DNA of 39,074 nt from Oscillospiraceae bacterium (GTDB lineage: Bacteria > Bacillota > Clostridia > Oscillospirales > Acutalibacteraceae), in the NCBI GenBank assembly GCA_031262125.1, contig JAISII010000169.1, positions 1-39,074 on the forward strand, in the 5' to 3' direction. The notes beneath the pieces were generated by a model. It saw nothing but the letters and a program-made list of their open reading frames with translations. It was not told the origin of the DNA and ran no database searches. The position numbers and the translations under genes were made by a program. Positions within the stretch are counted from its first letter, which is position 1. The number at the start of each line of letters is the position of its first letter. Positions 7,441 to 21,830 of this stretch are shown here, piece after piece.

Positions 7441-7674
7441 ATGTTTTGTCAAACTATTTGCATTTCGAGTTTTGAAGCCGCCAAAAGATTTATTAATATG
7501 ACCAATAGGTATATGAACCTTAAAATCAACCTTTTTTCCGAAGATTACATTATTGACGCTCATTCGGTTATGGGCATTTTGTCGCTGGATATGAACAAAC
7601 CCGTAGAGCTGCGTGCCGAGGGCGAAACCTTGAACGATTTTATTAAAGATATTGCCCCCTTTGCAGCTGCTTAA
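7441..7674 (+). CDS. HPr-like small protein (PTS phosphocarrier fold, truncated and divergent)
   Basis: 77 aa. IIDAHSVMGILSLDMNKPVELRAEGETLNDFIKDIAPF aligns by eye with HPr VNLKSIMGVMSLG..AEITI.A.G.DE..A. There is a strong RBS. This is the only plus-strand gene in the window. Confidence 0.65.
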   Translation: MFCQTICISSFEAAKRFINMTNRYMNLKINLFSEDYIIDAHSVMGILSLDMNKPVELRAEGETLNDFIKDIAPFAAA

Positions 7675-7779: not shown

Positions 7780-7814
7780 AATCGCCCCACCGCAAAATTA
7801 GCGGCAGGGCGATT
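7780..7814 (-). terminator. Terminator downstream of the 1160-aa surface protein gene (potentially bidirectional)
   Basis: AATCGCCC (7780-7787) pairs with GGGCGATT (7807-7814). An inner 4-bp extension (7790-7793 with 7801-7804) follows a 2-nt internal loop. T-rich tracts are present on both strands. Confidence 0.6.
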
Positions 7815-7858: not shown

Positions 7859-10800
7859 TTATTTGTTAAATATACCCGGGATTACCTCGCCGTCAGGTCC
7901 GTCGTGCTGCAAAAGCCAAGGAGTATCAAAGAAAACAATCTCACCTTTATAGTCAACATAGAAATCAAGGTCCGGCGTTGATACAGTCTCATAAATTCCG
8001 CTGAAACTATTTGAATATGTAACACGCATCTTATAGCGTACTCTTTTTGAGTCAAGGTAGCATCTTTGGTAAATGTCAAAATAATCATCGCTAACATCTA
8101 ACATCATGCCATCCCTTGCTTTAATCGAAACATCACACCAAGAACCCCTATAACCGACCCATTCAGGGTCATTATCGTAATCCTTATTAATGTACAAATC
8201 GGTATCCACACACATAACTTCTATTTTCCAGCCCAGATATTCAAAATCCGATGCTTGCATTTCGCCCTGACTATAGAAGCTAATCAGCTCGGTAACTTCA
8301 TCACGGTCTGGCAGCCAGTTGCCGTTACCGGTTACTTCACTCATCGGTGCATTGAATCGTGGCTTCCATTTTAAGGTTGGAGTTATTCCTCCCACATGAA
8401 TATCCCAATCCGTCTCATAAACTTGGATTTGTTCACCATCAACAACCTTATACACCCTTGCCACCATATGCCAAAGCCCACGCTCAGTAAGTCGATTTAG
8501 AGGGTGATAGCCATAATAATTAACAGTTTCGGTGTTATTAGGGTCGTTTTGCTTGGTAAGCCAATATACATCAATATATTCGCCTGAAGAGTAGTTTATA
8601 TTCAGCCCTTCAGCCCAAACATAATCACCGTCATCGCCCATGGGGTAAAACACTCCTTCAGAGTAGCCTGCCGTATATAGCGGTGGCGTTACGAACAGTC
8701 GGTCGTCGGTAGTGAATATTTTATACGAACCCACGATAGAATCGTAGCCGTATGCACTTATTGTATAGTTTATTGTAAATTCTTTGCCATATTTTTTTGT
8801 TGCAAGGAAAGGTTTGGTTATTGTTTTATATGTCCAATACGCATCTTCATCATCACACCAATACGAGATGCTGATTTCATCCGCGGACGGACCTATAACT
8901 TGGGGGTTAAGCACACTATCAGGCATCAGGTTATATTCTTGGTTTTCATCTGAGCCAACATATTGATAAGAAGCCACTTTGCCGCCCGTCATCGTGCGGT
9001 TTTTAACGGTAAATACCTCGTCTACGGTATAGTAGTAATTGGTGTTTGCACCGGGACCGTATAGGATTATAACAACTACCTTAAACTGCCCTCCGGGCAC
9101 CAAATCAGCTTGTGTCAGCTCGTTGTTGTCAAGGTCGTGCCATCTGAACAGCTTTGAATCGGGTTGTTGTGTAAAAGCCGCAACCGATTCGTCAAACACC
9201 ACATGGGCATTAAGTTCTGAGAGTGTAACAGGGTACTCCAGCTCTTCATCAATTTCAAGCTCCACATGGTTAGAAATATTCATTCCAAGCACCCTAACTC
9301 TGTACGATAGCGGTGTCGGGGCATAATTTACCGCAGTGTTGCCCGTTGGGGTTACTAAGCAAGTTACCATATAATCGCCCGCATATTTAACCTTATAAGG
9401 TCCGGGTCCCGTATACAAGGTATCATTGCCGAATTTTACTGTATAACTGAGCGTATATGTTGCATCCGGCGTAGTAATTGTAGGAGCAACAATACAATCT
9501 TGAAAATCGTTGTTAAATGTCAGTTCAACATTTTGCATAGTTTGGGCTGCCAAGGTTGAAGATATGAGCATAGAAGAAGCAAAATGAAAATACTCGGTTT
9601 CGATGTTATCACCGTTTTTATGGTAGCAATAGTCGGCAGCATCGCCTAAATCTATAAGTGCATAAATACCAAAAGATTTTGCATGGTCGTAAGCGGTAAC
9701 CCAATCAATCGATTCATACCAAGGGTAATTATCAAGGTTTGCAAAATTTGCACCCGCAGCTCTAAATTTTTGATTATTGCTCCAGCCCATATATATAATC
9801 TCGGCTTTTCCGCCAAGTTCCTCAAACCATGTCGGCAACCCCGATAATACTGGTGCTTCTATTGCTTGCGGATAGGTAAAGTTTTTAGAGGTATACGACA
9901 GTGCGGTTTTAAGCTCATATTTTTCAATCTCGAAAATATAATAATCGCTGACTGTGCCATAGCCGTCTGCCGCAATTTGAAAATAAACCTTATGCTCGCC
10001 AACTTCTTTAAAAGACGGCGGTGTTGCAAGGTTATATTCGCCCTCTTGTGTGCCGTACATTAATGTATAGTCGGCATCAAGAGTGGTTACGGTAACAGCA
10101 GGTGCTGCAAAAAATACATTATCAAACACGGCTGTTGTGCCGCTTGTGGGTTTTGTGTATTCAACAGCAGGCAGCCACTTGGCATACAATGTAATATCAC
10201 CGCTCGAGCCGAGCTCAATGCTCTCTACCCTATCTTCCCACACGCCGTCATCGGTATACCAACCGTCAAAAACATAGTCTTCACGTGTTGCCGGTTGCAA
10301 TGTAACAATACTATCGGCACTGTACAACGTTGGGTTAAGATAATAATTTTCGCCGCCGTTTAGCTCATATGTAATGTTATAAAATGTCGGCAAGTTTTCC
10401 AGCATTTTGCCGTCGGCACCAAAGGCATATGTGCCTATGGGCATATCGCAATAAGTGTTATAAACACTGAAAATTCCGCTTGTTTTTACAACGCCGCCCC
10501 AGTTGGAGTAGTAATAATCTTCGCCTGATTTATACAACCCGTTACCCGTAGTATCGCCGTTAATATAAAGGTAAAGTGTGCCGTCAACGTCTACAATGCC
10601 GTCAAGCATTTTGCCGTCGGCTCCAAAAGAGTATGACTTGCCGGCCGGTAAATCACAATAGGTTGATTCTACATAGTATCTGCCATCGGTGAAAATCACA
10701 CCGCCCCAATCGGAGAAGTAATAATCTTCACCCACTTTATATAAACCATTACCTGCAGTAACCCCGTTAATATAAAGGTAAAGTATATCGTCTTTCTCAA

Positions 10801-11341
10801 CAATTCCATTCACCATTTTGCCGTCGGTACCAAAGGTGTAGTTGCCAACCGGCAAATCGCAGAAAGTTGTGTCTACATAATAGGTTAAGCCTGCTATAAT
10901 AACGCCGCCCCAAGCAACAAAGTAATAGGCGTTGTTAATTTTATGCAAACCATACGGGGCAGTTATGCCGTTAATAAAATAGTGCCGTGTACCATCGATT
11001 TCTACAATACCGTTAAGCATTTTGCCGTCGGCATCGATTGTATAGTTCCTGCCAGCCGGCAAATCGCAATAGGTTGCTGCTGCATAATATGTGCCGTCGG
11101 TTAATATCACACCGCCCCAATCGGCAAGGTAATAGTCGTCGTCGATTTTAAACAAACCCTGCACAGAAGTTATGCCGTCAACATAGAGCAATTTTGTGCC
11201 GTCGTCTTGTTCAACAATGCCGGTAAAGTCAGACGTTATCGCCTGTGGTGCATCATCGGCAAAAGCAGTAACACCGCAAACCGTAAACGTTGTTGCTAAC
11301 ATAATTAGTGTTAAGGTAACGCAGAGTATTCTTTTAAACAT
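7859..11341 (-). CDS. Secreted cell-surface protein. Layout: signal peptide, 4 x ~65-aa cell-wall-binding-type repeats, a Listeria-Bacteroides (Flg_new-type) repeat, then ~770 aa of unassigned sequence that is probably Ig-like and adhesin-like.
   Basis: 1160-aa ORF. Signal peptide MFKRILCVTLTLIMLATTFTVCGVTAFA|DD. Repeats of the form LYLYINGxTxGNGLYKxGEDYYxSDWGGVIxTDGRYYVxSTYCDLPAGxSYxFGADGKMLxG span aa ~40-315. NITYELNGGENYYLNP...YVFDGWYTDDG...ITLYAKW (aa ~318-389) is the Listeria-Bacteroides repeat pattern. The rest carries recurring xxYTLxY...G.Y.V...NY...I motifs. Confidence 0.85.
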   Translation of the reverse strand: MFKRILCVTLTLIMLATTFTVCGVTAFADDAPQAITSDFTGIVEQDDGTKLLYVDGITSVQGLFKIDDDYYLADWGGVILTDGTYYAAATYCDLPAGRNYTIDADGKMLNGIVEIDGTRHYFINGITAPYGLHKINNAYYFVAWGGVIIAGLTYYVDTTFCDLPVGNYTFGTDGKMVNGIVEKDDILYLYINGVTAGNGLYKVGEDYYFSDWGGVIFTDGRYYVESTYCDLPAGKSYSFGADGKMLDGIVDVDGTLYLYINGDTTGNGLYKSGEDYYYSNWGGVVKTSGIFSVYNTYCDMPIGTYAFGADGKMLENLPTFYNITYELNGGENYYLNPTLYSADSIVTLQPATREDYVFDGWYTDDGVWEDRVESIELGSSGDITLYAKWLPAVEYTKPTSGTTAVFDNVFFAAPAVTVTTLDADYTLMYGTQEGEYNLATPPSFKEVGEHKVYFQIAADGYGTVSDYYIFEIEKYELKTALSYTSKNFTYPQAIEAPVLSGLPTWFEELGGKAEIIYMGWSNNQKFRAAGANFANLDNYPWYESIDWVTAYDHAKSFGIYALIDLGDAADYCYHKNGDNIETEYFHFASSMLISSTLAAQTMQNVELTFNNDFQDCIVAPTITTPDATYTLSYTVKFGNDTLYTGPGPYKVKYAGDYMVTCLVTPTGNTAVNYAPTPLSYRVRVLGMNISNHVELEIDEELEYPVTLSELNAHVVFDESVAAFTQQPDSKLFRWHDLDNNELTQADLVPGGQFKVVVIILYGPGANTNYYYTVDEVFTVKNRTMTGGKVASYQYVGSDENQEYNLMPDSVLNPQVIGPSADEISISYWCDDEDAYWTYKTITKPFLATKKYGKEFTINYTISAYGYDSIVGSYKIFTTDDRLFVTPPLYTAGYSEGVFYPMGDDGDYVWAEGLNINYSSGEYIDVYWLTKQNDPNNTETVNYYGYHPLNRLTERGLWHMVARVYKVVDGEQIQVYETDWDIHVGGITPTLKWKPRFNAPMSEVTGNGNWLPDRDEVTELISFYSQGEMQASDFEYLGWKIEVMCVDTDLYINKDYDNDPEWVGYRGSWCDVSIKARDGMMLDVSDDYFDIYQRCYLDSKRVRYKMRVTYSNSFSGIYETVSTPDLDFYVDYKGEIVFFDTPWLLQHDGPDGEVIPGIFNK
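10397..11224 (-). repeat. Four tandem ~195-bp (65-aa) wall-binding-type coding repeats
   Basis: Recurring DNA strings such as aagcattttgccgtcggc and caccgccccaatcgg recur with ~195-nt spacing. At protein level each unit is three ~20-aa aromatic/Gly sub-repeats, like choline-/glucan-binding (CW_binding_1-type) repeats. Confidence 0.8.
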
Positions 11342-11389
11342 AAAGGCATCTCCTCAAAATAAAGTAGGGCAATTTTCTCAAGATAATTA

Positions 11390-11418
11390 ATTTTAACATA
11401 TTTAAACAAAAATAGCAA
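11390..11418 (-). promoter_or_regulatory. Putative promoter of the 1160-aa surface protein gene (extended -10)
   Basis: Minus strand: TTGCTA (11418-11413), a 17-nt spacer ending in TGt, then TAAAAT (11395-11390). The same architecture and flanking sequence occur upstream of the scaffoldin gene. Confidence 0.5.
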
Positions 11419-11498
11419 GGAATTTCACGTTTTTTGTACACATTGACATAATTTGACACATAACTATATTAGTGTAATGATATAAATTAGAAACGCAA

Positions 11499-11529
11499 AA
11501 ATCCCCTCTGCCATAGACAAAGGGGATTT
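11499..11529 (-). terminator. Rho-independent terminator of the scaffoldin gene
   Basis: AAATCCCCT (11499-11507) pairs with AGGGGATTT (11521-11529). On the minus strand it is followed by TTTGCGTTTC. Confidence 0.7.
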
Positions 11530-11586
11530 AGGTTTTAATTATAGATTATTACTATAGTTTAGCAGAGTTTATGCAAAACTGATTAA

Positions 11587-14500
11587 TTAAGCAATAACTT
11601 TGCCGCTTGCATCAAAGGTGTATTCCATCGGTACAGAAAGACCATTGGTGATTTCTGCAAAGAAGGTTTGGTCAGTAATAAGTTTGCCGCCTTCGGTTAC
11701 ATAGTAATAATCACCGTCTACTGCAATCAAGCCCAAAGGTGCGGGGTTGCCGTTTTGATAGAGATAGATGCCGTCGGTTTTTGTTACAAAACCATCAAGC
11801 ATTTTACCATCGACTCCAAAAGTGTAGTTGCCAATCGGCAAATCACAGTTGGTAACATCTACATAATATGTGCCGTCGGTGTTAATTACGCCGCCCCAGC
11901 TTGCAAAGTAATAATCGCCGTCTAACTCAAACAAACCATATGGAGTGGTAATTCCGTTAATGTAGAGATACAGTATACCGTCAATCTCTACCATACCATT
12001 AAGCATTTTGCCGTCTGCACCGAAAGAGTAAGACAGGCCCGCCGATAAATCACAATAGGTTGTATCTACATGATAACTGCCATCGGTTTTAATTACGCCA
12101 CCCCAATCAGAGAGGTAATAATCATCGCCTATTTTGTATAAACCTTTGCTTGAAGTATCGCCGTTAATATAAAGGTAAAGTGTACCGTCGTTTTCTACAA
12201 TACCATTAAGCATTTTGCCATCGGCACCGAAATAGTACGACCTGTCTGCCGGCAAATCACAATAGGTTGTTACTACATGGTATCTGCCATCGGTGGTAAT
12301 TACACCGCCCCAATCAGAGAGGTAGTAATCGTCGCCAATTTTGTATAACCCTTTACTTGTAGTGTCGCCGTTAATATAAAGGTAAAGTGTGCCTTCGTTT
12401 TCTACAACACCGTTAAGCATTTTGCCGTCTGCACCAAAATAGTACGACCAGCCTGCTGGTATATCACAATAGGTTGTATCTACATGGTATCTGCCGTCTG
12501 TGAAAATTACGCCGCCCCAATAGGAGAGGTAGTAATCGTCGCCTATTTTGAATAAACCTTTACTTGCAGTATCGCCGTTAATATAAAGGATACCGTCGTA
12601 AATGCCGTTAAGCATTTTGCCGTCTGCTCCGAAATAATACGACCTGCCTGCCGGTAAATCGCAGTAAGTATTTGCAACATGGTATCTGCCATTGGCAAGA
12701 TTAATGCCGCCCCAATCGGAGAGATAATAATCATCTCCTATTTTGTACAAACCGTTGCTTGTGGTGTCGCCGTTAATATAAAGGTAAGATGTATCATCGC
12801 TTTCTAAAACACCGTTAAGCATTTTACCGTCGGCTCCAAAATAGTACGATCTGCCTGCCGGCATATCACAATAGGTTGTTTCTACATGGTATCTGCCGTC
12901 TGTGAAGATTACGCCGCCCCAATTGGAGAGATAATAATCGTCGCCGACTTTATATAAACCGTTAGCAGTAGTTACGCCGTCAAGGTAAAGGTAAAGTGTT
13001 CCTTCTTTTTCGACTATTTCGTTAATGCCTTTGTAATCTTCGCCGAAAATCATTCCGTAAATTTCGCCTTTTTGTGCATAGCCATTATCGCTGAAGAAAT
13101 ATACAGCATCTCCGATTTGTTGGAAGCCTTGCAAGCCTAAACCGTTCTGTGCATAAGCATAACCGTTACGGTCTGTATAGAAACCGTCAGCAATTTCTAC
13201 AGTTAAATCACGTGTGCCGTCTTCGTTAAAGAAGTACCAAGTTAAAACACCTTCCGCATTGGGAACAAGTTGTAACCCGCCCTCTAAACGGTAACCGGCT
13301 TCAAAGAAGTAATCTACATCATCGATTGTATACCAACCGCTGTAGTAGTATGAGGTTTCGCTATAGAAATAACGTGTACCGAAAAGTGTTTTCACCCATC
13401 CGCCAACGGGCTCCGGCTCGGGGTTAGTCGGGTCAGGTTCAGGATCTGTGGGATCCGGGTCAGGGTCTGTTGGGTCTGTTATCGGGTCAGTCGGGTCGGG
13501 CTCAGGATCCGTGGGATCCGGCTCAGGGTCAGTTGGATCCGGTTCGGGTTCTGTCGCTGCAGGTGTAATCGTAATAGCTTCAGAATCTGAAGTTAGAGAG
13601 AAAGAATCATCGATTACTGTAAAATATTCAACTAAGTAAGAGAGGTCTTCGGTTGTTGAATCTGCTACAGCCAAATCTCTGATATTCAAATCTACGCTGC
13701 CTGTGCCTGCAGCAATTACTTTAAATGTAATTGTAGCAAGAACTTTGCCCTCGTCGTTAAAGTCAAAACCATTAAAACCGGTTGCGGGATGGTAATAAGC
13801 AGAAGAGTTGAAATAGATTTTGCCTTCTTCGCCTGTGTTTGTCATTAAATTGCCGCCCGAAAGAACAGGGATACTGATTCTTTCAAATTCGATAACGTCC
13901 GAAGAGTATGTGATATGAACGTCAAGTGAAGTTGCAATTTTATCGGAAGGCAGGTTGAGTTCGTAAGTTGCTGTTACTGTGTCGCCGATATTTGCTTCGG
14001 TAAGTTCGAATGTGGAGATAACAGGTTCGGGAGTTGTGTATGTGTATGAATTTACCGACGTCGGGTCTACAGTCTCGTTGTCAAAATAGAAGCATACGCC
14101 GTCATACAAATCTGCAATTGCAATATCTTCTGTTTGGAAGTAATTGCCCCATTTTGTTGCGTCAAAATTATTGCGGAAGAGTATTCCTATAGCGGTATCT
14201 AAAACTTCGCCGGGAATAACTGCCGACCAAATATCGCCGTTTTCGCCGTAATTACCTGTTGCTGTCATCGGTATTGTGCCGTCTGAATTAGAGGTCCAAT
14301 AGAAGATAGCTGCAGGTGCCCAATTATATTTGTTCTCTAAGTATACTGTAATATCGGCAGTAGGAGGTGCTGTTGGAGGTTCTGTAGGTGGCACAGATTC
14401 TTTATATTCTCTCCAGTGGCCATCGAGTTTATCGGGCCAGGCTGTGCCTTCTGCTATGCTGGTGAAAGTGAATGTGCAGAAGTCCGGGTCGGCTGAGATT

Positions 14501-16602
14501 GTTGTGTCGATAGTTTCGTTGTAAACTATGGCATCCCATGTTGAGGCGGTAATTTCGCTTAACTCTTTTGTCGGGTCTATACGGCCAAACAATGCGTTTG
14601 CTCCGATATATTCAGCAGGTACCGAGTAGCTGTAGATGGGAGGATTGCTGCCCGTTACATATGTCGGGGCTATCCAAAGGTTGCCGCTTTCGTTCCATAC
14701 ATACAAGCCTGATTTTACACCGCTGCTTGCCCATGCAGGCAAGTTCTTTGTATCAAGATATACTGTTATGGGTTCGCTCGGTTCAACCGGTTCGGTTGCA
14801 GCTGTAGTAGGTTCGTCTACGGTGGGTTCTTCATCGCCCCCTGTCGGTGCGATGAGAATTTCGCAATAGCTGCCGTTGACTACATCTTCGCCAACATGGA
14901 AGATGATTTCTACTGTTGTCCAGGCCCATGTGATTTCTATTACTGCATTACCTGCAGAGTCTGCTAAGCCATCTTCATTCCAAGAATGACCGTTTGGTGA
15001 TTCTACAGAATCATACCATGCGCCGTTTGTTACTTTGAATTCGTATGTGCCTTTTACTAAGTGTTCAAAAACTAAGCCGTATGTGTTATCGTCAATTTTG
15101 GTCATTTCCAGACCGTCAACGTTCCAAGCACCAACTTCTTCGCCTACAAGACCAACTGTGCCTGCCAAATAGTATTTAACTTCCGGGGCAGGTTCGGGTT
15201 CGTCTTCAGTTGGGGCTTCGGTTGGTTCTGCAGGTGTGTATGTGTAAGAATTAACCGATTGCACATTTGTAGTGCTGTCAAAATAGAATGCAATGTTGTC
15301 ATGCAAGTCCGCTACTGCAATATCTTCTGTTTTGAAGTAGTCTTCCCATTTGTCTTTTGCAGTCTCGTACTCGTTGCGGAACAGAATACCGTCTGCACTG
15401 TCTAAAACTGTGCCGGGGATTACTGCTGACCAAAGGTCGCCGTTTGCTCCGCTTGCCCCTGTTGCTGTCATGTTTATTGTGCCGCTTGTTTCAGCTCCCC
15501 AATAATAGATTGCTGCAGGTGCCCAGTTGTAATTGTTTTCAAGGTATACTGTAATATCTTCCGAAGGTACGGGAGGTTCGGTTACGGGAGCCTCTGTGGG
15601 AGCGTCGGTTACAGGAGGTTCAGTAGGAGCTTCAGTGGGAGGCTCTGTTGGTTCTGCGGGTGCTCTGTATTCTCTCCAGTGTCCGGCGAATTTGTCTTCC
15701 CATGTTTTACCGTCTGCACTATCAAACGAGAATGTGCTGAATGCCGGGTCAGCCGAGATTGTTGTGTTGATAGTTTCGTTGTATACTATTGTATCCCATG
15801 TTGTACCGGTGATGTCGCTTAATTCTTTTGTCGGGTCAAGTCGAGCGAACAATGCACCTGCACCGATATATTCTGCAGGTACTGAATAACTATAGATTGG
15901 CGGGTTGCTGTTTTCTACATATGTCGGGGCAATCCAAAGGTTGCTGCCGCCGTTTATCCATACATACAAACCTGATTTTACGCCACTACTGGTCCATGGT
16001 GTAAAGTTTTTAGTATCTAAATATACTGTAATAGGTTCGGCAAGCACCGGAGGTTCGGTAACAGGTGCTTCTGTAATCGGCTCTGTGGGAGCATCAGTCG
16101 GATACTCTGTTACTTCTTCTGCTGTGGTCTCAACAACAGGAGGTTCGGTGGGTTCTGTTGGTGGTACTGTGGGCTCTTCTTCAGTTACAACTTCAAAAGC
16201 TACAACGTCAGACCATTTGCCGCCGCTTTTCGCAGAACTCTCCAGCGACCAAGCATAATCTTCGCCAATAGGAATATTGTTTGTTTGATTACCGCCATTG
16301 TCATTGAAAATTATGGTATCATACAAGCTAAGGTTTGCGTTTAAAGTGTAATAGTAATAGTTGTCATCGGCCTCAAGATATGCCATTTTTTGCCCTGGCC
16401 ATTCGGCATTTTTTGCACTTGAGCCGCTTTTGTACATATAAGCGTAAATGTCGTACCAGCCGCTGCTGATTGTTTTTGCTTTGCGGAAATAAATTTCCGA
16501 ACTGTCTGAACCATCTGCGGCTACTGCCGTAACAGCACAAACAGAAAACATTGCAGCAACCATTACTGCGGTTAAGATAATGCTAAGAATTCGTTTTGCC
16601 AT
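11587..16602 (-). CDS. Amylosome-type scaffoldin-like surface protein. Layout: signal peptide, CBM25/26-like starch-binding module, two copies each of two further module families, a beta-sandwich module, one cohesin-like domain, a PEPDPTD linker and a C-terminal wall-binding repeat array.
   Basis: 1671-aa ORF. Signal peptide MAKRILSIILTAVMVAAMFSVCAVTAVAA|DG. Module A: IYFRKAKTISSGWYDIYAYMYKSG..AEWPGQKM...YDTIIFNDNGGNQTNNI (WPGxxM/IIFN..G.QT pattern of CBM25/26). Module family B at aa 190-312 and 611-733; family C at aa 349-456 and 750-857. Cohesin-like domain at aa 861-1012. Six full, one partial and several degenerate wall-binding repeats at aa 1066-1671. There is no LPXTG motif and no SLH domain. 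Confidence 0.85.
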   Translation of the reverse strand: MAKRILSIILTAVMVAAMFSVCAVTAVAADGSDSSEIYFRKAKTISSGWYDIYAYMYKSGSSAKNAEWPGQKMAYLEADDNYYYYTLNANLSLYDTIIFNDNGGNQTNNIPIGEDYAWSLESSAKSGGKWSDVVAFEVVTEEEPTVPPTEPTEPPVVETTAEEVTEYPTDAPTEPITEAPVTEPPVLAEPITVYLDTKNFTPWTSSGVKSGLYVWINGGSNLWIAPTYVENSNPPIYSYSVPAEYIGAGALFARLDPTKELSDITGTTWDTIVYNETINTTISADPAFSTFSFDSADGKTWEDKFAGHWREYRAPAEPTEPPTEAPTEPPVTDAPTEAPVTEPPVPSEDITVYLENNYNWAPAAIYYWGAETSGTINMTATGASGANGDLWSAVIPGTVLDSADGILFRNEYETAKDKWEDYFKTEDIAVADLHDNIAFYFDSTTNVQSVNSYTYTPAEPTEAPTEDEPEPAPEVKYYLAGTVGLVGEEVGAWNVDGLEMTKIDDNTYGLVFEHLVKGTYEFKVTNGAWYDSVESPNGHSWNEDGLADSAGNAVIEITWAWTTVEIIFHVGEDVVNGSYCEILIAPTGGDEEPTVDEPTTAATEPVEPSEPITVYLDTKNLPAWASSGVKSGLYVWNESGNLWIAPTYVTGSNPPIYSYSVPAEYIGANALFGRIDPTKELSEITASTWDAIVYNETIDTTISADPDFCTFTFTSIAEGTAWPDKLDGHWREYKESVPPTEPPTAPPTADITVYLENKYNWAPAAIFYWTSNSDGTIPMTATGNYGENGDIWSAVIPGEVLDTAIGILFRNNFDATKWGNYFQTEDIAIADLYDGVCFYFDNETVDPTSVNSYTYTTPEPVISTFELTEANIGDTVTATYELNLPSDKIATSLDVHITYSSDVIEFERISIPVLSGGNLMTNTGEEGKIYFNSSAYYHPATGFNGFDFNDEGKVLATITFKVIAAGTGSVDLNIRDLAVADSTTEDLSYLVEYFTVIDDSFSLTSDSEAITITPAATEPEPDPTDPEPDPTDPEPDPTDPITDPTDPDPDPTDPEPDPTNPEPEPVGGWVKTLFGTRYFYSETSYYYSGWYTIDDVDYFFEAGYRLEGGLQLVPNAEGVLTWYFFNEDGTRDLTVEIADGFYTDRNGYAYAQNGLGLQGFQQIGDAVYFFSDNGYAQKGEIYGMIFGEDYKGINEIVEKEGTLYLYLDGVTTANGLYKVGDDYYLSNWGGVIFTDGRYHVETTYCDMPAGRSYYFGADGKMLNGVLESDDTSYLYINGDTTSNGLYKIGDDYYLSDWGGINLANGRYHVANTYCDLPAGRSYYFGADGKMLNGIYDGILYINGDTASKGLFKIGDDYYLSYWGGVIFTDGRYHVDTTYCDIPAGWSYYFGADGKMLNGVVENEGTLYLYINGDTTSKGLYKIGDDYYLSDWGGVITTDGRYHVVTTYCDLPADRSYYFGADGKMLNGIVENDGTLYLYINGDTSSKGLYKIGDDYYLSDWGGVIKTDGSYHVDTTYCDLSAGLSYSFGADGKMLNGMVEIDGILYLYINGITTPYGLFELDGDYYFASWGGVINTDGTYYVDVTNCDLPIGNYTFGVDGKMLDGFVTKTDGIYLYQNGNPAPLGLIAVDGDYYYVTEGGKLITDQTFFAEITNGLSVPMEYTFDASGKVIA
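11590..13407 (-). repeat. C-terminal array of wall-binding-type repeats: a degenerate ~135-aa lead-in, six full ~65-70-aa units and one partial unit
   Basis: Units are GTLYLYINGDTTSKGLYKIGDDYYLSDWGGVIxTDGRYHVxTTYCDLPAGRSYYFGADGKMLNGxVE. Neighbouring units are highly similar at the DNA level, and all resemble the repeats at 10397-11224. Confidence 0.85.
13408..13548 (-). repeat. In-frame 21-bp tandem repeat encoding a (PEPDPTD)n linker
   Basis: Protein reads PEPDPTDPEPDPTDPEPDPTDPITDPTDPDPDPTDPEPDPTNPEPEP. The DNA shows repeated ggatccgg(g/c)tcagggtc units. Confidence 0.9.
13567..14022 (-). other. Cohesin-like domain of the scaffoldin (aa ~861-1012)
   Basis: VISTFELTEANIGDTVTATYELNLPSDKIATSLDVHITYSSDVIEFERISIP...EGKIYFNSS...DEGKVLATITFKVIAAGTGSVDLNI follows the cohesin pattern G.TV.V.V.L......I...D..I.YD..VLE........G.I.F.......DG.LA.I.FKV....G....L. 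Boundaries are by eye. Confidence 0.65.
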
Positions 16603-16666
16603 AAATACATCTCCTCAAATTTTAATATCTTTTTACGTTATACAACGCAAATTTTCAGATAATACA

Positions 16667-16695
16667 ATTTTAACATTTTAAAATGCAATTTGCAA
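16667..16695 (-). promoter_or_regulatory. Putative promoter of the scaffoldin gene (extended -10)
   Basis: Minus strand: TTGCAA (16695-16690), a 17-nt spacer ending in TGt, then TAAAAT (16672-16667). The downstream leader shares TTATCTGAAAATTTGC and ATTTGAGGAGATG with the leader at 11342-11389. Confidence 0.5.
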
Positions 16696-16770
16696 GTGTT
16701 TTTTTGCATATTCACAATTTATTTATAATTAAATGCCAATCCTGTTTTTTTATTGCACTTTGTGTAGGAA

Positions 16771-16804
16771 AAAATCCCCTCCGTTAAAAAACGAAGGGGA
16801 TTTT
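16771..16804 (-). terminator. Rho-independent terminator of the amylase gene
   Basis: On the plus strand AAAATCCCCTcCGT pairs with ACGaAGGGGATTTT (one mismatch, loop TAAAAA). The minus-strand hairpin runs into TTTTTTCC. Confidence 0.8.
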
Positions 16805-16837
16805 AAGGTTAATTAAGTTATTTGTAATGCCATAAAC

Positions 16838-19800
16838 TTATACTTCGGGTATATAGGTGTAAGAATTTACAGACTGCAGTTCAGAGGCACTGTCGAAATA
16901 GAATGCAATGCCGTCATACAAATCTGCAACTGCAATGTCCTCTGTTTGATAATAATTGCCCCATGTTTCTTTAACTTCTTCGTAATTGTTGCGGAACAAA
17001 ATTGCTGTTGCACTTTCCAAAATTTCGCTCGGTATTACTGCCGACCAGATTGCACCATTACTTCCATTTTTGCCCGTTGCTGTCATTTCAATTATACCTA
17101 TTAAGCCGTCGGGGTTCCAATAGCGGATTGCTGCCGGTGCCCAATTATATTTATTTTCAAAATAAATTGTTATTGAAGAGCCGGGGTTAGGCGGGTAATA
17201 TGGGTCGCCGCCGCCGCCAACGTCGCTGAGTGTGCCGCTTTCGGGGTCAAACACTTTTTGGTCGTAAGAGGTATCTCCTGTTATTGAAATGCAGTTTGCA
17301 CCGCTTTGCAAGTTAATGTTATCCCACATATTGTAATAATCTGTGCCTACAGCACCGCCATCATCTTTAGCAACAAGTGTGGCAACTTCATAGCCTGTGC
17401 GGTAAATTGCAATATATGTCCAATCGCTGGGCAATTCATCCAAAAATGCATAGGTAGAGTTATCAGCATCGCCGGCTGCTTCAAGCTCTTTTGTCAGCGA
17501 GAAGCTTTCGCCGGTAGCTTTGTTGTAAATCCACAATTTTGCACCTTCTATAAACAGCCATTTGCCTGTTGCGGTTTTATCAGAACCGGATGTGCTGTCA
17601 TAAACATAGAAAGCATTGTCGCCGGGGTTCGGGTCGGGAGGATTGGGAGGTTCGGGTGGGTCAATTATCGGGTCGCCATGGTCAACATAAGACCATGTGC
17701 CTTTGCCGCCGGTTTCTATTGTAAGTGTGTTCATACCTGCCTGCCCTGCAAGGTCGGCAGTTTGGTTAGTTGTCTTCCAATCTGCTTTATCAACAAGCTT
17801 AAAGCAATCAACACCCGCCGGAACTGAAGTCGTATAGGCGGAAAAGTCAATTGAATAAACTCCATTGCCCTCGTCAGTACATTGAATAAACGGGTCAGTC
17901 GCAGTTGTTGGCAAGCCGCTTACACCCCAACCGTGAATATAAACAGATTCCCAGCCGCTGGGTTTTACAAAGTACAGTTTTAAGGGGATTGTAGCTTCAA
18001 CAGCATCGGGGTCATAATTGGCAATCAAATTACCTGAGGTAGAACCTGTAAGTTCATAAGCATTGTTGCTGCCAATGGTAATATTTTCCCATTTATCATA
18101 TACAATTGTCTTATCGCCCAAAGCTGCTTCTACTTCTGCACCTGTTGCCGGACCACCATCATAAGAACCTTTTACATTATAGATGGAGATATTGTTAACC
18201 GAGCTGCCTAAAGCAAAGCTGGCATAACGTGAATTATTGTCGGTGGGTGAATCGTTCTCGCCCAAATACCATGTGCCTGTGTCGTTATCACGTATCCACA
18301 GCAGTTTTGCATCGTCTAACGCCCAGCCTACTTTGTCGGCTACATAGAATGTTTTTGCGTTCGGGTCGGGCTCGGGAGGATTGGGAGGTTCGGGTGGGTC
18401 AACAATTATCGGACCGTCGCCATAGTCAACATAAGACCAAGTGCCTTTTAGCCCTTGTTGAATTGTAAGTGTGTTTTTGCCCTTCTCGCCTGCAATATTG
18501 TCGGTTTGCTTTGTTGCATTCCACTCTGCATCTGTTGTCGCAATTGTTTCAGTAAGTTTAAACATAGGCATACCCGGTGTGATTGCAGATGTATACGCCG
18601 AGAAGTCAAACGAATAAACACCATTACCTTCGTCTGTACATTCAAAGAACTGAGCATTTAAGCCGGTTCCACCCCAGCCGTAAACATAAACAGTCTGCCA
18701 ATCAGCGGGTTTTATAAAGTAGAGCTTTAATGGAATTGAATCTTCAACAGCATTGGGGTCATAATTAGCAATCAGTTCGCCTGTGGAGTTGCCTGTAAGT
18801 GCGTAAGCGTTGTTGCTGCCGATTGAGATATTTTCCCATTTGTTATAAACTATTGACGTATCATTCAGTGCAGCTTCAACTTCTGCACCTGTTGCAGGAC
18901 CACCTGCATAAGAACCCATAACATGGTATATTGAGATATTGCTTACATTTTTATCTAAAATGAATTCTGCATAGCGTGCATCGTTAGAAGGCAGTTCTTT
19001 AAAGCCCATATACCATTCGCCGGAAACATTATCATGTACCCAAAGGTCTGCTGCATTATCTAATGCCCATGCTACTTTGTCTACTACATAGAATAATTTT
19101 CTGTCGGGGTCTGGCTCCGGTTCGGTGTCAGGTACGGTGGTCGGTGTCGTGTCAGGTACGGTGGTGATTTCGCTGCCACCTGCAGGTTCGCCTACATTAC
19201 CTGTTTTCTCAAAATGTGCAAGATATTTTTGTATTAACGTAACATCGGCTACTGTAACACCTGATTCTTCATCGGCATTTGCCGCCGAAAGAGCTGTGCC
19301 TGTAATTGATTTAACTTTAGCCAAATGTTTTTGAATTTCGGTTGCATCGTCTACTGTTACTTTATTGTCGCCATTAGCATCGCCAATAATATAGCTGCCG
19401 GGGTTAATGACCGGAGCGGTAGTAGTTACAACGGGTGTAGTTGTAGTTATAACGGGTGTAGTTGTAGTTATAACGGGTGTTGTGGTGGTTATAATTGGTG
19501 TAGTTGTTGTAGATGTTTCTACACTTGTGGGTTGTTCATCGTCTTTTGCCGGCACAAGTATAACTTCCGGTGCAGGTGCCTCGGTAGGAACTTTGCCTGT
19601 GTATACTTTAAAAACCGAATTGGTAGTTAAAATATACGATTGGTTCTTTTCTACAAAAGGTCCTGTTGGTACTTTAGCAGCCGGATATTGAGGCGGCGGG
19701 TTTTTACCGCTGTTATCCATAAAAACAATGTGGCAACCTTCGGCATAACCTTTCGGCAGCTCGTAAAAATAATATCCGTAGCTAATTTCATCGTGCCTTG

Positions 19801-21709
19801 TCATTTTTTCGCCGGGCCACTCTGCATTAATAATCTGATTAACGCCTTCTTGCTCTCTATCCCACTTAGTACGCTTGCCATTGCTATGATACCATACATA
19901 GATGTTTGGAACATCATAACCCTTAGGATTACCATTCGAAAATTTAGTGTTATCCAAAACAACCCATACGCCGCTGCCATCTTTTTCTACTTTTTCGTAA
20001 TTATAGGTGTTGGTAACGGTTTTTGTGCCGTCGGTTGCAGTTAAGGTTACTTTGTATTTTGTACCTGCTTTGTCGTTTTCGCCCAAATAATAGTCGAAAT
20101 TGCCATTTGTAATAACATATTTTTGACCATTGTTAATCTGGAATGTGCCATAGGTTGCATTGTTGTAGCTGAAGTTTAATTTAAGGTAGCTTGTGCCAAA
20201 CTTTTTACTGTCGGATGAACTGGTAACAAAAGGTGTTGTTGCAGCCTGACGCAGAACAGCTACGCCGCTGGAACCAATGTTACCCTTAATTTGACCACCC
20301 GAAACAGTAAATTTGTCGCCTGTTACCATATCGGTATAATTGCCGTCTGCAAGCTTGTTTGCTTTAATATTAACCGAGCCGGAGTTAGAAGCAGCTGTGT
20401 TAACAATAACAGCACCGCTTGTTCCACGCTCTATATAAGCAAAAGTTCCCGACGAAGCAACATATTCGGATTGACCGATAAATGCATTATGAAATTTATT
20501 AACTTCGGCGACGGGTACACTTTTCCAAGAAGGGTCGCCTATTTCGCCCATAAGACCTGATTCGCCTGTTCGGGAGAAATAAAGGGCGGTTGCATGTTCT
20601 CTTGAGCCAACAAGTGCCCATGTTTTAACCATATCCGAAATGCTAAAATCTTTGGTATAATCGATGTTACGACTACCGTCCGGATTGAACTCATCACCGG
20701 CATAACAGTCGTGAGATTCTGCCCACAAAACGTATTTATTAGGTGTGTTACCTGCATTGTAAGAGCCTTGAGCAGCAGCGGAGGCACTATGATTTTTTAC
20801 TCCGTTGCGAATATTACGACCTATAACATTGTCTGTTATAGACATAAATTCGGTATAAGCATCAAACCCTCTCGAACGCCCATTGCCTGTGGTGTTTAAG
20901 ATTTCGCCGTAATAGTAAGGGGTTACACCTTTGCCTTGTGCATATGCTGTTGTGGCGTTTAAAACATTCGGCCAGAAGTCTGAAGCATATTGACCATCAT
21001 AAGGAGTTTCGATATGCTTTGCAGCATCAAAACGGAAGCCGTCAACGCCTACATCAATACACTGTTTAAGCAGGTCAGTAACACTTTGCTGAATGTATGA
21101 GTTGCCGGTGTTAACACTTTGCATGCCGCTAAGGCGACCTTGCACCTGCCACTTGATATTCTTGTCGTCTGTATTCTGTGATTCTTGGTGAAAATAGTCT
21201 GAGGTTATACCTGCGTTAAAAATCTGCGGCTCATACTGCTTAACTATATCATCAAGGGTACCTTCGCTTTTGCCGGCTGTACCCAAATGGTTTGCCACGA
21301 TATCTACAATAATTTTAATGCCGTACTTATCAGCCTCGGTACACAAAGACCTCAATTCGTCTTCGCTGCCCAAATAGTTAGTTTCAATTGAATAGCTAAC
21401 CGGCTGATAGAGCTTCCACCACTGCCCGCCAACGTCGATATTTTTGGGTGTGTATGTCTTGGGCATTTGCACCGGCGAAGTTTGCACCGTGCTGTAGCCC
21501 GACTGTGCTATAACCGGAAGCTGTGCCTTAATGTTGTTGTAAGACCAGTTCCATGCGTGCAGAATTACACCATCTTGTACATTAGTTGCCAAGTTATACT
21601 CGCCTGTTGTGCCAGCTGCTGCAACATTAATTGTAGCGGGCAAAACCGCCATTGTTGCAAGCAGAGTAACAGCCAACAGCAAACTCAGCAATCTTTTTGC
21701 TTTTTTCAT
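16838..21709 (-). CDS. Secreted multi-modular GH13 alpha-amylase (AmyE-like) with a CBM26-like module, a Thr-rich linker, an internal dockerin, duplicated ~230-aa modules and a C-terminal family-C module
   Basis: 1623-aa ORF. Signal peptide MKKAKRLLSLLLAVTLLATMAVLPATINVAAA|G. GH13 conserved regions: DIVANH; GFRFDAAKH (D228); YYYGEIL (E269); LWAESHD (D334). CBM-like segment: IYVWYHSNG...AEWPGEKM...HIVFMDNSG. Dockerin at aa 774-835. AGGAGG RBS at ~21718-21723. Confidence 0.9.
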   Translation of the reverse strand: MKKAKRLLSLLLAVTLLATMAVLPATINVAAAGTTGEYNLATNVQDGVILHAWNWSYNNIKAQLPVIAQSGYSTVQTSPVQMPKTYTPKNIDVGGQWWKLYQPVSYSIETNYLGSEDELRSLCTEADKYGIKIIVDIVANHLGTAGKSEGTLDDIVKQYEPQIFNAGITSDYFHQESQNTDDKNIKWQVQGRLSGMQSVNTGNSYIQQSVTDLLKQCIDVGVDGFRFDAAKHIETPYDGQYASDFWPNVLNATTAYAQGKGVTPYYYGEILNTTGNGRSRGFDAYTEFMSITDNVIGRNIRNGVKNHSASAAAQGSYNAGNTPNKYVLWAESHDCYAGDEFNPDGSRNIDYTKDFSISDMVKTWALVGSREHATALYFSRTGESGLMGEIGDPSWKSVPVAEVNKFHNAFIGQSEYVASSGTFAYIERGTSGAVIVNTAASNSGSVNIKANKLADGNYTDMVTGDKFTVSGGQIKGNIGSSGVAVLRQAATTPFVTSSSDSKKFGTSYLKLNFSYNNATYGTFQINNGQKYVITNGNFDYYLGENDKAGTKYKVTLTATDGTKTVTNTYNYEKVEKDGSGVWVVLDNTKFSNGNPKGYDVPNIYVWYHSNGKRTKWDREQEGVNQIINAEWPGEKMTRHDEISYGYYFYELPKGYAEGCHIVFMDNSGKNPPPQYPAAKVPTGPFVEKNQSYILTTNSVFKVYTGKVPTEAPAPEVILVPAKDDEQPTSVETSTTTTPIITTTTPVITTTTPVITTTTPVVTTTAPVINPGSYIIGDANGDNKVTVDDATEIQKHLAKVKSITGTALSAANADEESGVTVADVTLIQKYLAHFEKTGNVGEPAGGSEITTVPDTTPTTVPDTEPEPDPDRKLFYVVDKVAWALDNAADLWVHDNVSGEWYMGFKELPSNDARYAEFILDKNVSNISIYHVMGSYAGGPATGAEVEAALNDTSIVYNKWENISIGSNNAYALTGNSTGELIANYDPNAVEDSIPLKLYFIKPADWQTVYVYGWGGTGLNAQFFECTDEGNGVYSFDFSAYTSAITPGMPMFKLTETIATTDAEWNATKQTDNIAGEKGKNTLTIQQGLKGTWSYVDYGDGPIIVDPPEPPNPPEPDPNAKTFYVADKVGWALDDAKLLWIRDNDTGTWYLGENDSPTDNNSRYASFALGSSVNNISIYNVKGSYDGGPATGAEVEAALGDKTIVYDKWENITIGSNNAYELTGSTSGNLIANYDPDAVEATIPLKLYFVKPSGWESVYIHGWGVSGLPTTATDPFIQCTDEGNGVYSIDFSAYTTSVPAGVDCFKLVDKADWKTTNQTADLAGQAGMNTLTIETGGKGTWSYVDHGDPIIDPPEPPNPPDPNPGDNAFYVYDSTSGSDKTATGKWLFIEGAKLWIYNKATGESFSLTKELEAAGDADNSTYAFLDELPSDWTYIAIYRTGYEVATLVAKDDGGAVGTDYYNMWDNINLQSGANCISITGDTSYDQKVFDPESGTLSDVGGGGDPYYPPNPGSSITIYFENKYNWAPAAIRYWNPDGLIGIIEMTATGKNGSNGAIWSAVIPSEILESATAILFRNNYEEVKETWGNYYQTEDIAVADLYDGIAFYFDSASELQSVNSYTYIPEV
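17669..19099 (-). repeat. Two tandem copies (R1 aa 871-1100, R2 aa 1119-1347) of a ~230-aa bipartite module separated by PPEPPNPP linkers. A diverged half-copy (R3) follows at 17225-17614.
   Basis: R1 and R2 align along their whole length, for example FYVxDKVxWALDxAxLW...NISIYxVxGSYxGGPATGAEVEAAL...KWENIxIGSNNAYxLTG...LIANYDPxAVExxIPLKLYFxKPxxWxxVYxxGWG...CTDEGNGVYSxDFSAYT...GTWSYVD. Confidence 0.85.
19205..19390 (-). other. Dockerin module (aa ~774-835) inside the amylase
   Basis: Two Ca-binding-loop plus helix segments: GDANGDNKVTVDDATEIQKHLAKV and NADEESGVTVADVTLIQKYLAHF. These match the duplicated D.N.D..V...D.T.IQ..LA pattern of ruminococcal dockerins. Confidence 0.8.
19412..19510 (-). 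repeat. In-frame 24-bp tandem repeat encoding a (TTTTPVIT)n linker
   Basis: Protein reads TTTTPIITTTTPVITTTTPVITTTTPVVTTTAP. The DNA shows repeated gtagttgtagttataacgggt units. Confidence 0.9.
20246..21613 (-). other. GH13 catalytic domain plus C-domain (aa ~33-488)
   Basis: The four canonical alpha-amylase regions listed above closely resemble B. subtilis AmyE (GFRFDAAKH, YGEIL, ESHD). Boundaries are by eye. Confidence 0.85.
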
Positions 21710-21830
21710 ACTGTTATGTCCTCCTAAAAATAGATAAAAAAATTATTTATGACAACGACCTAAGCCGTAAATCCCTAAAAAAACATAATAAACACTTTAC
21801 ATAATATATCATTATGTTAGCAGAAGTATA

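Follow-up and report, generated by a model that had tools for sequence, protein, structure and literature searches.

A putative amylosome-type pair, a dockerin-bearing amylase and a scaffoldin with wall-binding-type repeats, in an uncultured Oscillospiraceae bacterium

Introduction

Can an amylosome, the cohesin-dockerin complex that degrades starch at the bacterial surface, be built from parts other than those of Ruminococcus bromii? Amylosomes have been characterised essentially in that species, with attachment to the wall through scaffoldins that bear a sortase signal. The question is raised by three consecutive, co-oriented genes, named Amy, Sca and P3 here, on contig JAISII010000169.1 of an Oscillospiraceae bacterium (GenBank assembly GCA_031262125.1). 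The contig was analysed over its full length of 39,074 nucleotides, hereafter the window.

16838..21709 (-): Amy, 1623 amino acids (aa), secreted GH13 alpha-amylase
11587..16602 (-): Sca, 1671 aa, scaffoldin
7859..11341 (-): P3, 1160 aa, surface protein

An initial annotation, made from the DNA letters, had described three co-oriented genes for proteins of these lengths, each with a signal peptide and its own terminator, and its coordinates proved exact. All three N-termini read as Sec-type signal peptides, in which a start rich in K/R precedes a hydrophobic core and a cleavage site of the AxA type. Together, the genes supply three of the features by which an amylosome is recognised, namely a secreted dockerin-bearing GH13 amylase, a cohesin-bearing scaffoldin in the same organism, and starch-binding modules. 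We hold with modest confidence that Amy and Sca belong to a complex of the amylosome type, which would degrade starch at the surface of an uncultured bacterium of the Oscillospiraceae/Ruminococcus group. In it, Sca would be anchored by its repeats and Amy would be its likeliest partner. The amylosome-type pair proposed initially, in which a dockerin amylase adjoins a cohesin protein that has many starch-binding modules and could plausibly be anchored to the wall non-covalently, is thus retained. The proposed size of the complex and the role given to the third gene are revised below.

The dockerin-bearing amylase

Amy consists of a signal peptide, a GH13 domain, a CBM26 module, a Thr-rich linker, a dockerin, two units of a module X followed by CBM26, a third X, and a module termed Z.

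20240..21607 (-): GH13 catalytic domain and C-domain (aa ~35-490); phmmer E=1e-66 to the B. subtilis alpha-amylases 3dc0/1bag over aa 41-486
19640..19942 (-): CBM26 no. 1 (aa ~590-690); Pfam CBM26 36 bits, gathering threshold (GA) 28.1; WPGEKM
19220..19384 (-): dockerin (aa 776-830); Pfam Dockerin_1; calcium loops DANGDNKVTVDD and NADEESGVTVAD
17675..19132 (-): two tandem X+CBM26 units (aa 860-1100 and 1108-1345), mutual identity 56-66%
17318-17650 (-): third X module, from self-comparison
16847..17203 (-): C-terminal Z module (aa 1503-1621), 62-63% identical to both Z modules of Sca

All four conserved regions of GH13 are intact in Amy (DIVANH, GFRFDAAKH, YGEIL and WAESHD). They align with those of R. 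bromii Amy16 and carry the Asp-Glu-Asp catalytic residues of a GH13 alpha-amylase, and activity on (resistant) starch is predicted from these motifs. Amy16 is also the best solved relative (9qf9; phmmer E=1.8e-93), in an alignment that spans GH13, CBM26 and dockerin. In addition, Amy is collinear with the R. bromii protein P0093 (1061 aa; 36% identity over aa 1-1098), which by size and architecture is Amy9 (Table 1 of PMC5814915), and the first X+CBM26 unit of Amy is collinear with the Amy9 C-terminus. Among the matches listed from a search of 5.8 billion proteins, Amy homologues share 29-49% identity and are almost all of the GH13-CBM26-dockerin type; the highest identity is that of P0081, at 49% over 40% of Amy, and apart from this partial match none exceeded 45%. 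Sequence relationships support the membership of Amy in the Amy9/Amy16 clade. Each CBM26 downstream of the Amy dockerin is preceded by a copy of module X, which has ~125 aa, matches no Pfam family and is also present in Amy9.

The dockerin scores 29.2 bits with Dockerin_1 as an isolated segment and 22.0 bits within the whole protein (GA 22.9). It retains both calcium loops, the second of them non-canonical (N/D/E ligands), and aligns with the Amy16 dockerin that has been used experimentally. The reading of the first gene as a GH13 enzyme with four catalytic regions, a WPGxKM module and a dockerin therefore agrees with Pfam and phmmer. What lies downstream of the dockerin had been overlooked, namely two further CBM26 modules (Pfam 26.9 and 31.1 bits), three X modules and one Z.

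The cohesin of Sca

Sca carries one domain to which a dockerin may bind.

13645..14001 (-): single cohesin of Sca (aa 868-986); Pfam Cohesin (PF00963), profile, AlphaFold2 (AF2)/Foldseek

Five independent lines of evidence give good support to its identity as a cohesin. Pfam gives 26.8 bits for the isolated segment and 22.2 bits in the whole protein (GA 24.1). The single sequence finds only a marginal match in the PDB, and a profile built from the related domains described below was needed. The profile matches 7urp (E 3e-17), the cohesin of R. bromii Amy4 (9qf3, residues 1117-1218; E 1.7e-7) and then classical cellulosomal cohesins. The AF2 model has a predicted local distance difference test (pLDDT) score of 84.7 and a predicted template-modelling score (pTM) of 0.80. 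Its top Foldseek match (template-modelling (TM) score 0.62, 26% identity) is 7urp, a structure of the second Sca5 cohesin of R. bromii, and all 17 matches below 1e-3 (E 2.6e-5 to 1e-3) are cohesins or cohesin-like modules.

This evidence bears on whether any complex is formed. The three genes could encode unrelated secreted proteins, with a cohesin and a dockerin that are vestigial or serve other partners, as would suit separate transcription units with their own terminators and whole-protein Pfam scores just under GA for both domains. However, cohesin and dockerin both exceed GA as isolated segments, the cohesin model is confident and matches solved cohesins, and the dockerin keeps both of its calcium-binding loops. 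We regard such a coincidence as highly improbable. The single cohesin predicted for the second gene passed its profile check on the isolated domain, as did the dockerin of Amy.

The relatives of the Sca cohesin were found in a HMMER scan of 1.84 billion representatives, which gave 41. Nine of the ten best have a dockerin and most have several cohesin copies. The top relatives combine 4-6 cohesins with an N-terminal Dockerin_1, and one relative joins three cohesins to three CBM26 modules and a dockerin. Over the 40 nearest cohesin proteins, a dockerin is present in 16 and a C-terminal transmembrane helix in six. P0241, P0242, P0244, P0251, P0262 and P0267 are near relatives that are short and end in a transmembrane helix, the same type as the membrane-anchored scaffoldin recently described for R. 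difficilis (PMC13463774).

Predicted starch-binding modules of Sca

Segment-wise Pfam searches and self-comparison give the order of Sca as signal peptide, CBM26, Y, Z, X25-like, Y', Z', cohesin, PDPT linker and choline-binding-type repeats.

16276..16467 (-): CBM26 (aa 46-109); Pfam CBM26 55.9 bits; AEWPGQKM ... IIFNDNGGNQT
14038..16041 (-): Y-Z, X25-like and Y'-Z' block (aa 188-855); Pfam, self-comparison, hhalign
aa 188-310: Y, no Pfam family
aa 343-457: Z, CBM26-like
aa 470-575: X25-like, X25_BaPul_like 21.5 bits, below GA 27
aa 603-730: Y', no Pfam family
aa 739-855: Z', CBM26-like
aa ~1000-1065: PDPT linker, from sequence reading

Canonical CBM26 modules, with WPGxKM and a score above GA, are the N-terminal module of Sca and module 1 of Amy. 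The starch-specific modules on the components of the locus amount to three CBM26 in Amy and one in Sca, with the X25-like module of Sca below threshold. There are two Z modules in Sca, and one each at the C-terminus of Amy and in a further protein, P0005. Aligned with CBM26, they reach 95% in hhalign (E 2.9e-8) but only 15 bits with Pfam CBM26, below GA. The clear CBM25/26-like module first noticed in the second gene is thus a CBM26, at 55.9 bits. Four more modules had been ascribed to the same layout. Z and Z' can be kept as CBM26-like, whereas Y and Y' (hhalign 33%) are not demonstrably carbohydrate-binding modules. The X25-like module had escaped notice.

The non-repeat part of Sca has few relatives. 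Its aa 1-1010 found only 7 matches among the 5.8 billion proteins, the best being P0005. The whole of Sca found no match among PDB sequences, and the Y-Z alignment gave no confirmed match in metagenome contigs. Exact look-ups of Sca and of P0005 in the contig index were negative. Foldseek matches of a Y-Z model were antibody Fabs only, at a TM score of ~0.2, and were discarded as meaningless.

P0005 is a 1222-aa protein annotated as alkaline phosphatase, from a metagenome-assembled genome (MAG) of an Oscillospiraceae bacterium, and contains Alk_phosphatase, two CBM26 and Dockerin_1. Its C-terminal Y and Z modules are ~60% identical to those of Sca, and its linker, TTTxP(I/V)xTTT, is of the same style as the linker of Amy. 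Judged by these likenesses, P0005 probably comes from the same genome as the window or a sister genome, and it suggests that this lineage has further dockerin proteins. A dockerin-borne phosphatase with CBM26 modules also raises the possibility that amylosomes dephosphorylate starch.

The C-terminal repeats of Sca and their occurrence in P3

The last third of Sca is a repeat array.

11590..13407 (-): Sca repeat array (aa 1066-1671); Choline_bind_3 37.9 bits, GA 27; DNA repeat families D1/D2

The array begins with ~135 aa of short, ~20-aa-type repeats and continues with seven composite units of 65-69 aa. Sca ends in ...EYTFDASGKVIA and P3 in ...GIFNK, and neither has LPXTG, the sortase signal of the R. 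bromii amylosome. Sca also lacks a C-terminal transmembrane helix. Since both devices are absent, the repeats are the only candidate anchor of Sca, and its sequence makes non-covalent wall anchoring through them most likely. The repeats have weak matches to the models of pneumococcal PspA/PspC. Rumen Butyrivibrio enzymes reportedly use such repeats as wall anchors. Lipoprotein signal peptides were considered for Sca and P3 and rejected, on sequence reading only, as FSVC and FTVC misfit a lipobox (Val at -1).

P3 consists of a signal peptide, four long Sca-type repeats (aa 45-318), Flg_new (aa 321-388) and an orphan region of ~770 aa. The repeat arrays of P3 and Sca are 50-61% identical in amino acids, although the P3 array by itself reaches no more than 10.8 bits with Choline_bind_3. 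The two genes are also alike at their 5' ends, where a stretch of 108 nt that takes in the code for the signal peptide has 71% identity (DNA repeat family D10). The third gene thus has the signal-peptide type and repeat array of the second, as had been observed at the outset. Its place in a three-gene starch locus is another matter. Pfam detects no starch-related domain in P3 and no family in the ~770 aa outside Flg_new. The 101 matches of its C-terminal 860 aa all rest on Flg_new, with P0130, P0146 and P0169 the only ones that cover >15% of the query. At the level of sequence, nothing ties P3 to starch, and the claim of a three-gene starch locus was dropped for want of such a domain and of homologues outside Flg_new.

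Expression signals and history of the site

The spacing and flanks of the three genes retain traces of how the locus arose.

~16769..16804 (-): terminator 3' of Amy, AAAATCCCCTTCG-TTTTTTAA-CGGAGGGGATTTTTT, read by eye; stem homologous to the Sca terminator
11499..11529 (-): terminator 3' of Sca; terminator scan, 14-bp stem
7780..7814 (-): terminator 3' of P3; terminator scan, 14-bp stem, 9 GC pairs
16667..16695 (-): promoter-like site 5' of Sca, TTGCAA-17-TAAAAT with TG; consensus match only
11390-11418 (-): promoter-like site 5' of P3, homologous to that of Sca
7441..7674 (+): HPr-like open reading frame (ORF), 77 aa; Pfam PTS-HPr (PF00381) 23.3 bits; outside the Amy/Sca/P3 system

A hairpin and T-run follow each of the three genes. 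That of Amy was missed by the automated scan, probably owing to its 8-nt loop and a stem mismatch. On the minus strand, the Amy-Sca (16603-16840) and Sca-P3 (11342-11590) intergenic regions are homologous, with a common terminator stem, AAATCCCCTT..GAGGGGATTT, and a promoter-like CTTGC(A/T)A-17-TGTTAAAAT. Their likeness, along with that of the 5' gene ends and repeats, indicates that Sca and P3 carry a duplicated cassette for regulation/expression, secretion (the signal peptide) and anchoring.

Of the amylase homologues, the closest is P0010 (986 aa, 40% identity), encoded on a 47.6-kb contig (L081) with the gene order polC - AI-2E/ytvI - hisZ - hisG - hisD - hisC - hisB - hisA - hisI - hisE - amylase - 76-aa ORF (opposite strand) - mtaB, with HisD and MtaB 70% and 56% identical to those of the window. 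A second relative (L087; P0011) has hisB-A-I-E - amylase - 76-aa ORF - mtaB. Sca and P3 are absent from the site in both. In both relatives (L081, region 12962-13404; L087, region 10959-11438), the syntenic amylase has only 985-986 aa and stops after the first X+CBM26 unit, and the 76-aa ORF on the opposite strand between amylase and mtaB is homologous to the 77-aa HPr-like ORF of the window.

Since both relatives have the order hisE-amylase-ORF-mtaB, the amylase gene is, on this comparison, ancestral at the his-mtaB site, and only Sca and P3 are extra. By the same comparison, Sca+P3 (~9 kb) is lineage-specific and occupies precisely the interval from the amylase to the HPr-like ORF, which marks its distal boundary. 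The C-terminal extension of Amy by ~640 aa (986 -> 1623 aa), which includes the Z module shared with Sca, is lineage-specific as well. The initial view of a locus inserted between housekeeping operons thus fits Sca and P3 but not the amylase, which is syntenic in L081 and L087. Recent horizontal transfer of the whole locus was rejected on account of this synteny and of GC content, which is 0.38-0.46 as in the flanks. In R. bromii, Amy9 sits in a different context from his-mtaB. The synteny affords a rare view before and after the addition of a scaffoldin gene beside a pre-existing dockerin enzyme.

Proposed assembly and alternatives

The preferred reading, in which Amy and Sca form an amylosome-type complex at the cell surface, draws on observed domain identities, on the relationships of Amy to Amy9/Amy16 and of the Sca cohesin to Sca5, on shared modules and on synteny. 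Sca would be secreted and then held non-covalently on the cell wall by its C-terminal repeat solenoid. By homology, its canonical CBM26 would bind starch, as probably would its two Z modules and the X25-like module. The single cohesin would offer one calcium-dependent site for a dockerin-bearing protein, for which the most parsimonious partner would be Amy, given that it is encoded directly upstream and has a Z module in common with Sca. P3 would be a second surface protein with the same promoter, signal-peptide and anchor cassette. Sca+P3 and the C-terminal extension of Amy would have been added in this lineage beside the ancestral amylase gene. Beyond those observations, the account predicts the specificity of the pairing, the attachment of Sca to the wall, and a role in binding starch for the modules that are not canonical.

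Several points weigh against it, and they concern the modules, transcription, the partner of the cohesin, and the repeats. In the Z modules, the Trp of WPGxKM is missing. The Y modules belong to no detectable family and reach only 33-38% in hhalign, and the AF2 model of Y-Z, from a 4-sequence alignment, is unreliable (pLDDT 51.6). With one terminator per gene, co-transcription is not implied. The cognate partner of the Sca cohesin could be an adaptor scaffoldin instead of Amy, because the nearest relatives of that cohesin are multi-cohesin proteins with N-terminal dockerins. Finally, the repeat profile has only non-significant matches in the PDB, a glucansucrase (E 0.11) followed by the LytA choline-binding domain, and repeats of the choline-binding type also act elsewhere as glucan- or carbohydrate-binding domains.

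The last of these points would have Sca released from the cell. The repeats of Sca and P3 may bind alpha-glucan or another carbohydrate, in which case Sca, like R. bromii Sca3/Sca4, would coat starch as a cell-free scaffoldin. The choline-binding/CW_binding superfamily to which the repeats belong includes the glucan-binding domains of glucansucrases and the CROPs of clostridial toxins. The best PDB match of the repeat profile, although non-significant, is of that kind, and the 65-69-aa units are unusual and bear little resemblance to the canonical choline-binding repeat of 20 aa. Yet P3 has the same repeats with no starch-related module, which is a better fit to a generic surface anchor, and the weak matches extend to the LytA choline-binding domain and to PspA/PspC. 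A glucan-binding role in place of anchoring is, in our judgement, unlikely.

As to the partner, Sca may instead anchor a larger amylosome, with its cohesin occupied by an adaptor scaffoldin or by other enzymes such as a phosphatase of the P0005 type. Amy would then dock elsewhere, and its adjacency to Sca would be incidental to specificity. The 4-6 cohesins and N-terminal Dockerin_1 of the top cohesin relatives, with dockerins in 16 of the 40 nearest, fit this arrangement, and P0005 is a second dockerin protein with Y/Z modules and a Thr-rich linker. R. bromii Amy16 likewise reaches wall-bound scaffoldins via Amy4 and not directly (PMC12663171), and the amylase was at the site before the arrival of Sca. 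On the other side, the available 39 kb contain no adaptor scaffoldin and no second cohesin, and P0005 may stem from another genome. The Z module, recently exchanged between Amy and Sca, suggests that the two have co-evolved. Docking of Amy elsewhere is a real but lesser possibility, and we keep Amy as the likeliest partner of Sca.

How large the complex would be is a separate matter. Because of P0005 and of the multi-cohesin adaptors nearest to the Sca cohesin, a larger amylosome is at least as likely as a system of one enzyme and one scaffoldin, and the 39-kb window cannot decide between them. The minimal one-cohesin, one-dockerin amylosome of the initial annotation is thus unsupported: 39 kb is too little to judge it by, and P0005 and the multi-cohesin relatives argue against it.

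Neighbouring genes

The locus is flanked by housekeeping genes on both sides. Upstream are cdsA, dxr, rseP, ispG, polC, ytvI and a his cluster (hisZG-D-C-B-A-I-E) that ends at 21830. Downstream are mtaB, a small helix-turn-helix gene, murD and M42 peptidases. The window has no Rfam families and no tRNAs. Other features of the flanks are as follows.

26618-28255 (-): hisZ and hisG fused in a single 545-aa ORF (HisZ aa 13-321, HisG aa 338-520); separate genes in L081
5471-5833 (-): small XRE-type helix-turn-helix ORF, 120 aa (ORF call), in the AT-rich mtaB-murD gap

The his clusters of the window and of L081 both lack hisH and hisF. In a scan of contigs from a collection of species-representative genomes, to which the source genome does not belong, the best match of MtaB was 55% identical and came from a rumen MAG labelled 'uncultured Ruminococcus sp.', a distance at which synteny is uninformative. 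The MtaB matches came from rumen or ruminant-gut MAGs labelled Ruminococcus, Oscillospiraceae or Acutalibacteraceae.

Comparison with known systems

Amy shares with R. bromii Amy9 and Amy16 the order of signal peptide, GH13, CBM26, dockerin, (X) and CBM26. Both R. bromii enzymes dock onto cohesins (PMC9112005, PMC5814915, PMC12663171), and Amy4 recruits Amy16 through its own cohesin (PMC12663171). Amy is larger, with 1623 aa compared to ~1060 aa for Amy9 and ~870 aa for Amy16. Unlike these enzymes, it carries its X+CBM26 unit in duplicate, followed by a third X and, at the C-terminus, a Z module that the adjacent scaffoldin also has. Its genomic context, too, differs from that in R. bromii.

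The closest functional counterpart of Sca is R. bromii Sca5, whose X25 starch-binding domains are accompanied by two cohesins and by a sortase signal (PMC9112005, PMC5814915). Both are secreted scaffoldins with starch-binding modules, a cohesin and a device for cell-surface attachment, and Sca also has an X25-like module. However, the 1671 aa of Sca comprise, besides CBM26 and the Y/Z modules, a single X25-like module, a single cohesin and an array of choline-binding-type repeats that takes up ~600 aa. There is no LPXTG, and the search of PDB sequences with the whole of Sca showed no overall sequence homology to Sca5. The metagenomic adaptor P0235 resembles Sca in that CBM26 and cohesins of the same subfamily are present on one polypeptide, but it has three cohesins and ends in a dockerin, whereas Sca has one and ends in wall-binding-type repeats.

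The anchoring scaffoldins of cellulosomes are likewise cohesin-bearing proteins that fasten a complex, through its dockerin, to the envelope of Gram-positive cells, by SLH modules (OlpB/ScaB), by sortase (ScaE), or by LysM, a transmembrane helix or a Cu-amine-oxidase-like domain. A survey of scaffoldin anchors lists SLH, LPxTG, LysM, C-terminal transmembrane helix and Cu-amine-oxidase-like types, and choline-binding/CW_binding repeats are not among them (PMC11557425). Such repeats are found in none of the 40 nearest cohesin proteins, and full-text searches of the open library returned no description of a natural scaffoldin that fuses them to a cohesin. The repeats of Sca, which match Choline_bind_3 above GA, are best compared with those of choline-binding/CW_binding_1 surface proteins, which include pneumococcal choline-binding proteins and LytA, rumen Butyrivibrio polysaccharidases and domain V of glucansucrases. 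Compared with these proteins, the 65-69-aa composite units of Sca are very divergent.

More tentatively, Sca may represent an undescribed class of anchoring scaffoldin, with a divergent non-covalent solenoid and new starch-binding families Y and Z, that arrived together with P3 as a ~9-kb cassette and turned a free or otherwise docked amylase into a self-contained, wall-bound mini-amylosome. A scaffoldin so well equipped to bind starch, with one cohesin and a probably non-covalent anchor of repeats, would mean that the amylosome principle was rebuilt from different parts in another gut lineage. It would also bring an anchoring mode to the cohesin-dockerin toolbox, and Z, Y and X would be candidates for new starch-binding modules. 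The cohesin-dockerin pair and the repeat anchor could also be of use for surface display.

R. bromii Sca5 already provides the precedent for a scaffoldin that binds starch and is attached to the wall (PMC9112005, PMC5814915), and we infer for Sca an analogous function with a different anchor and set of modules. What appears to be new here, from the sequence comparisons, is the module architecture that joins CBM26 with Y and Z, the non-sortase anchor based on repeats, and the tight adjacency of enzyme and scaffoldin.

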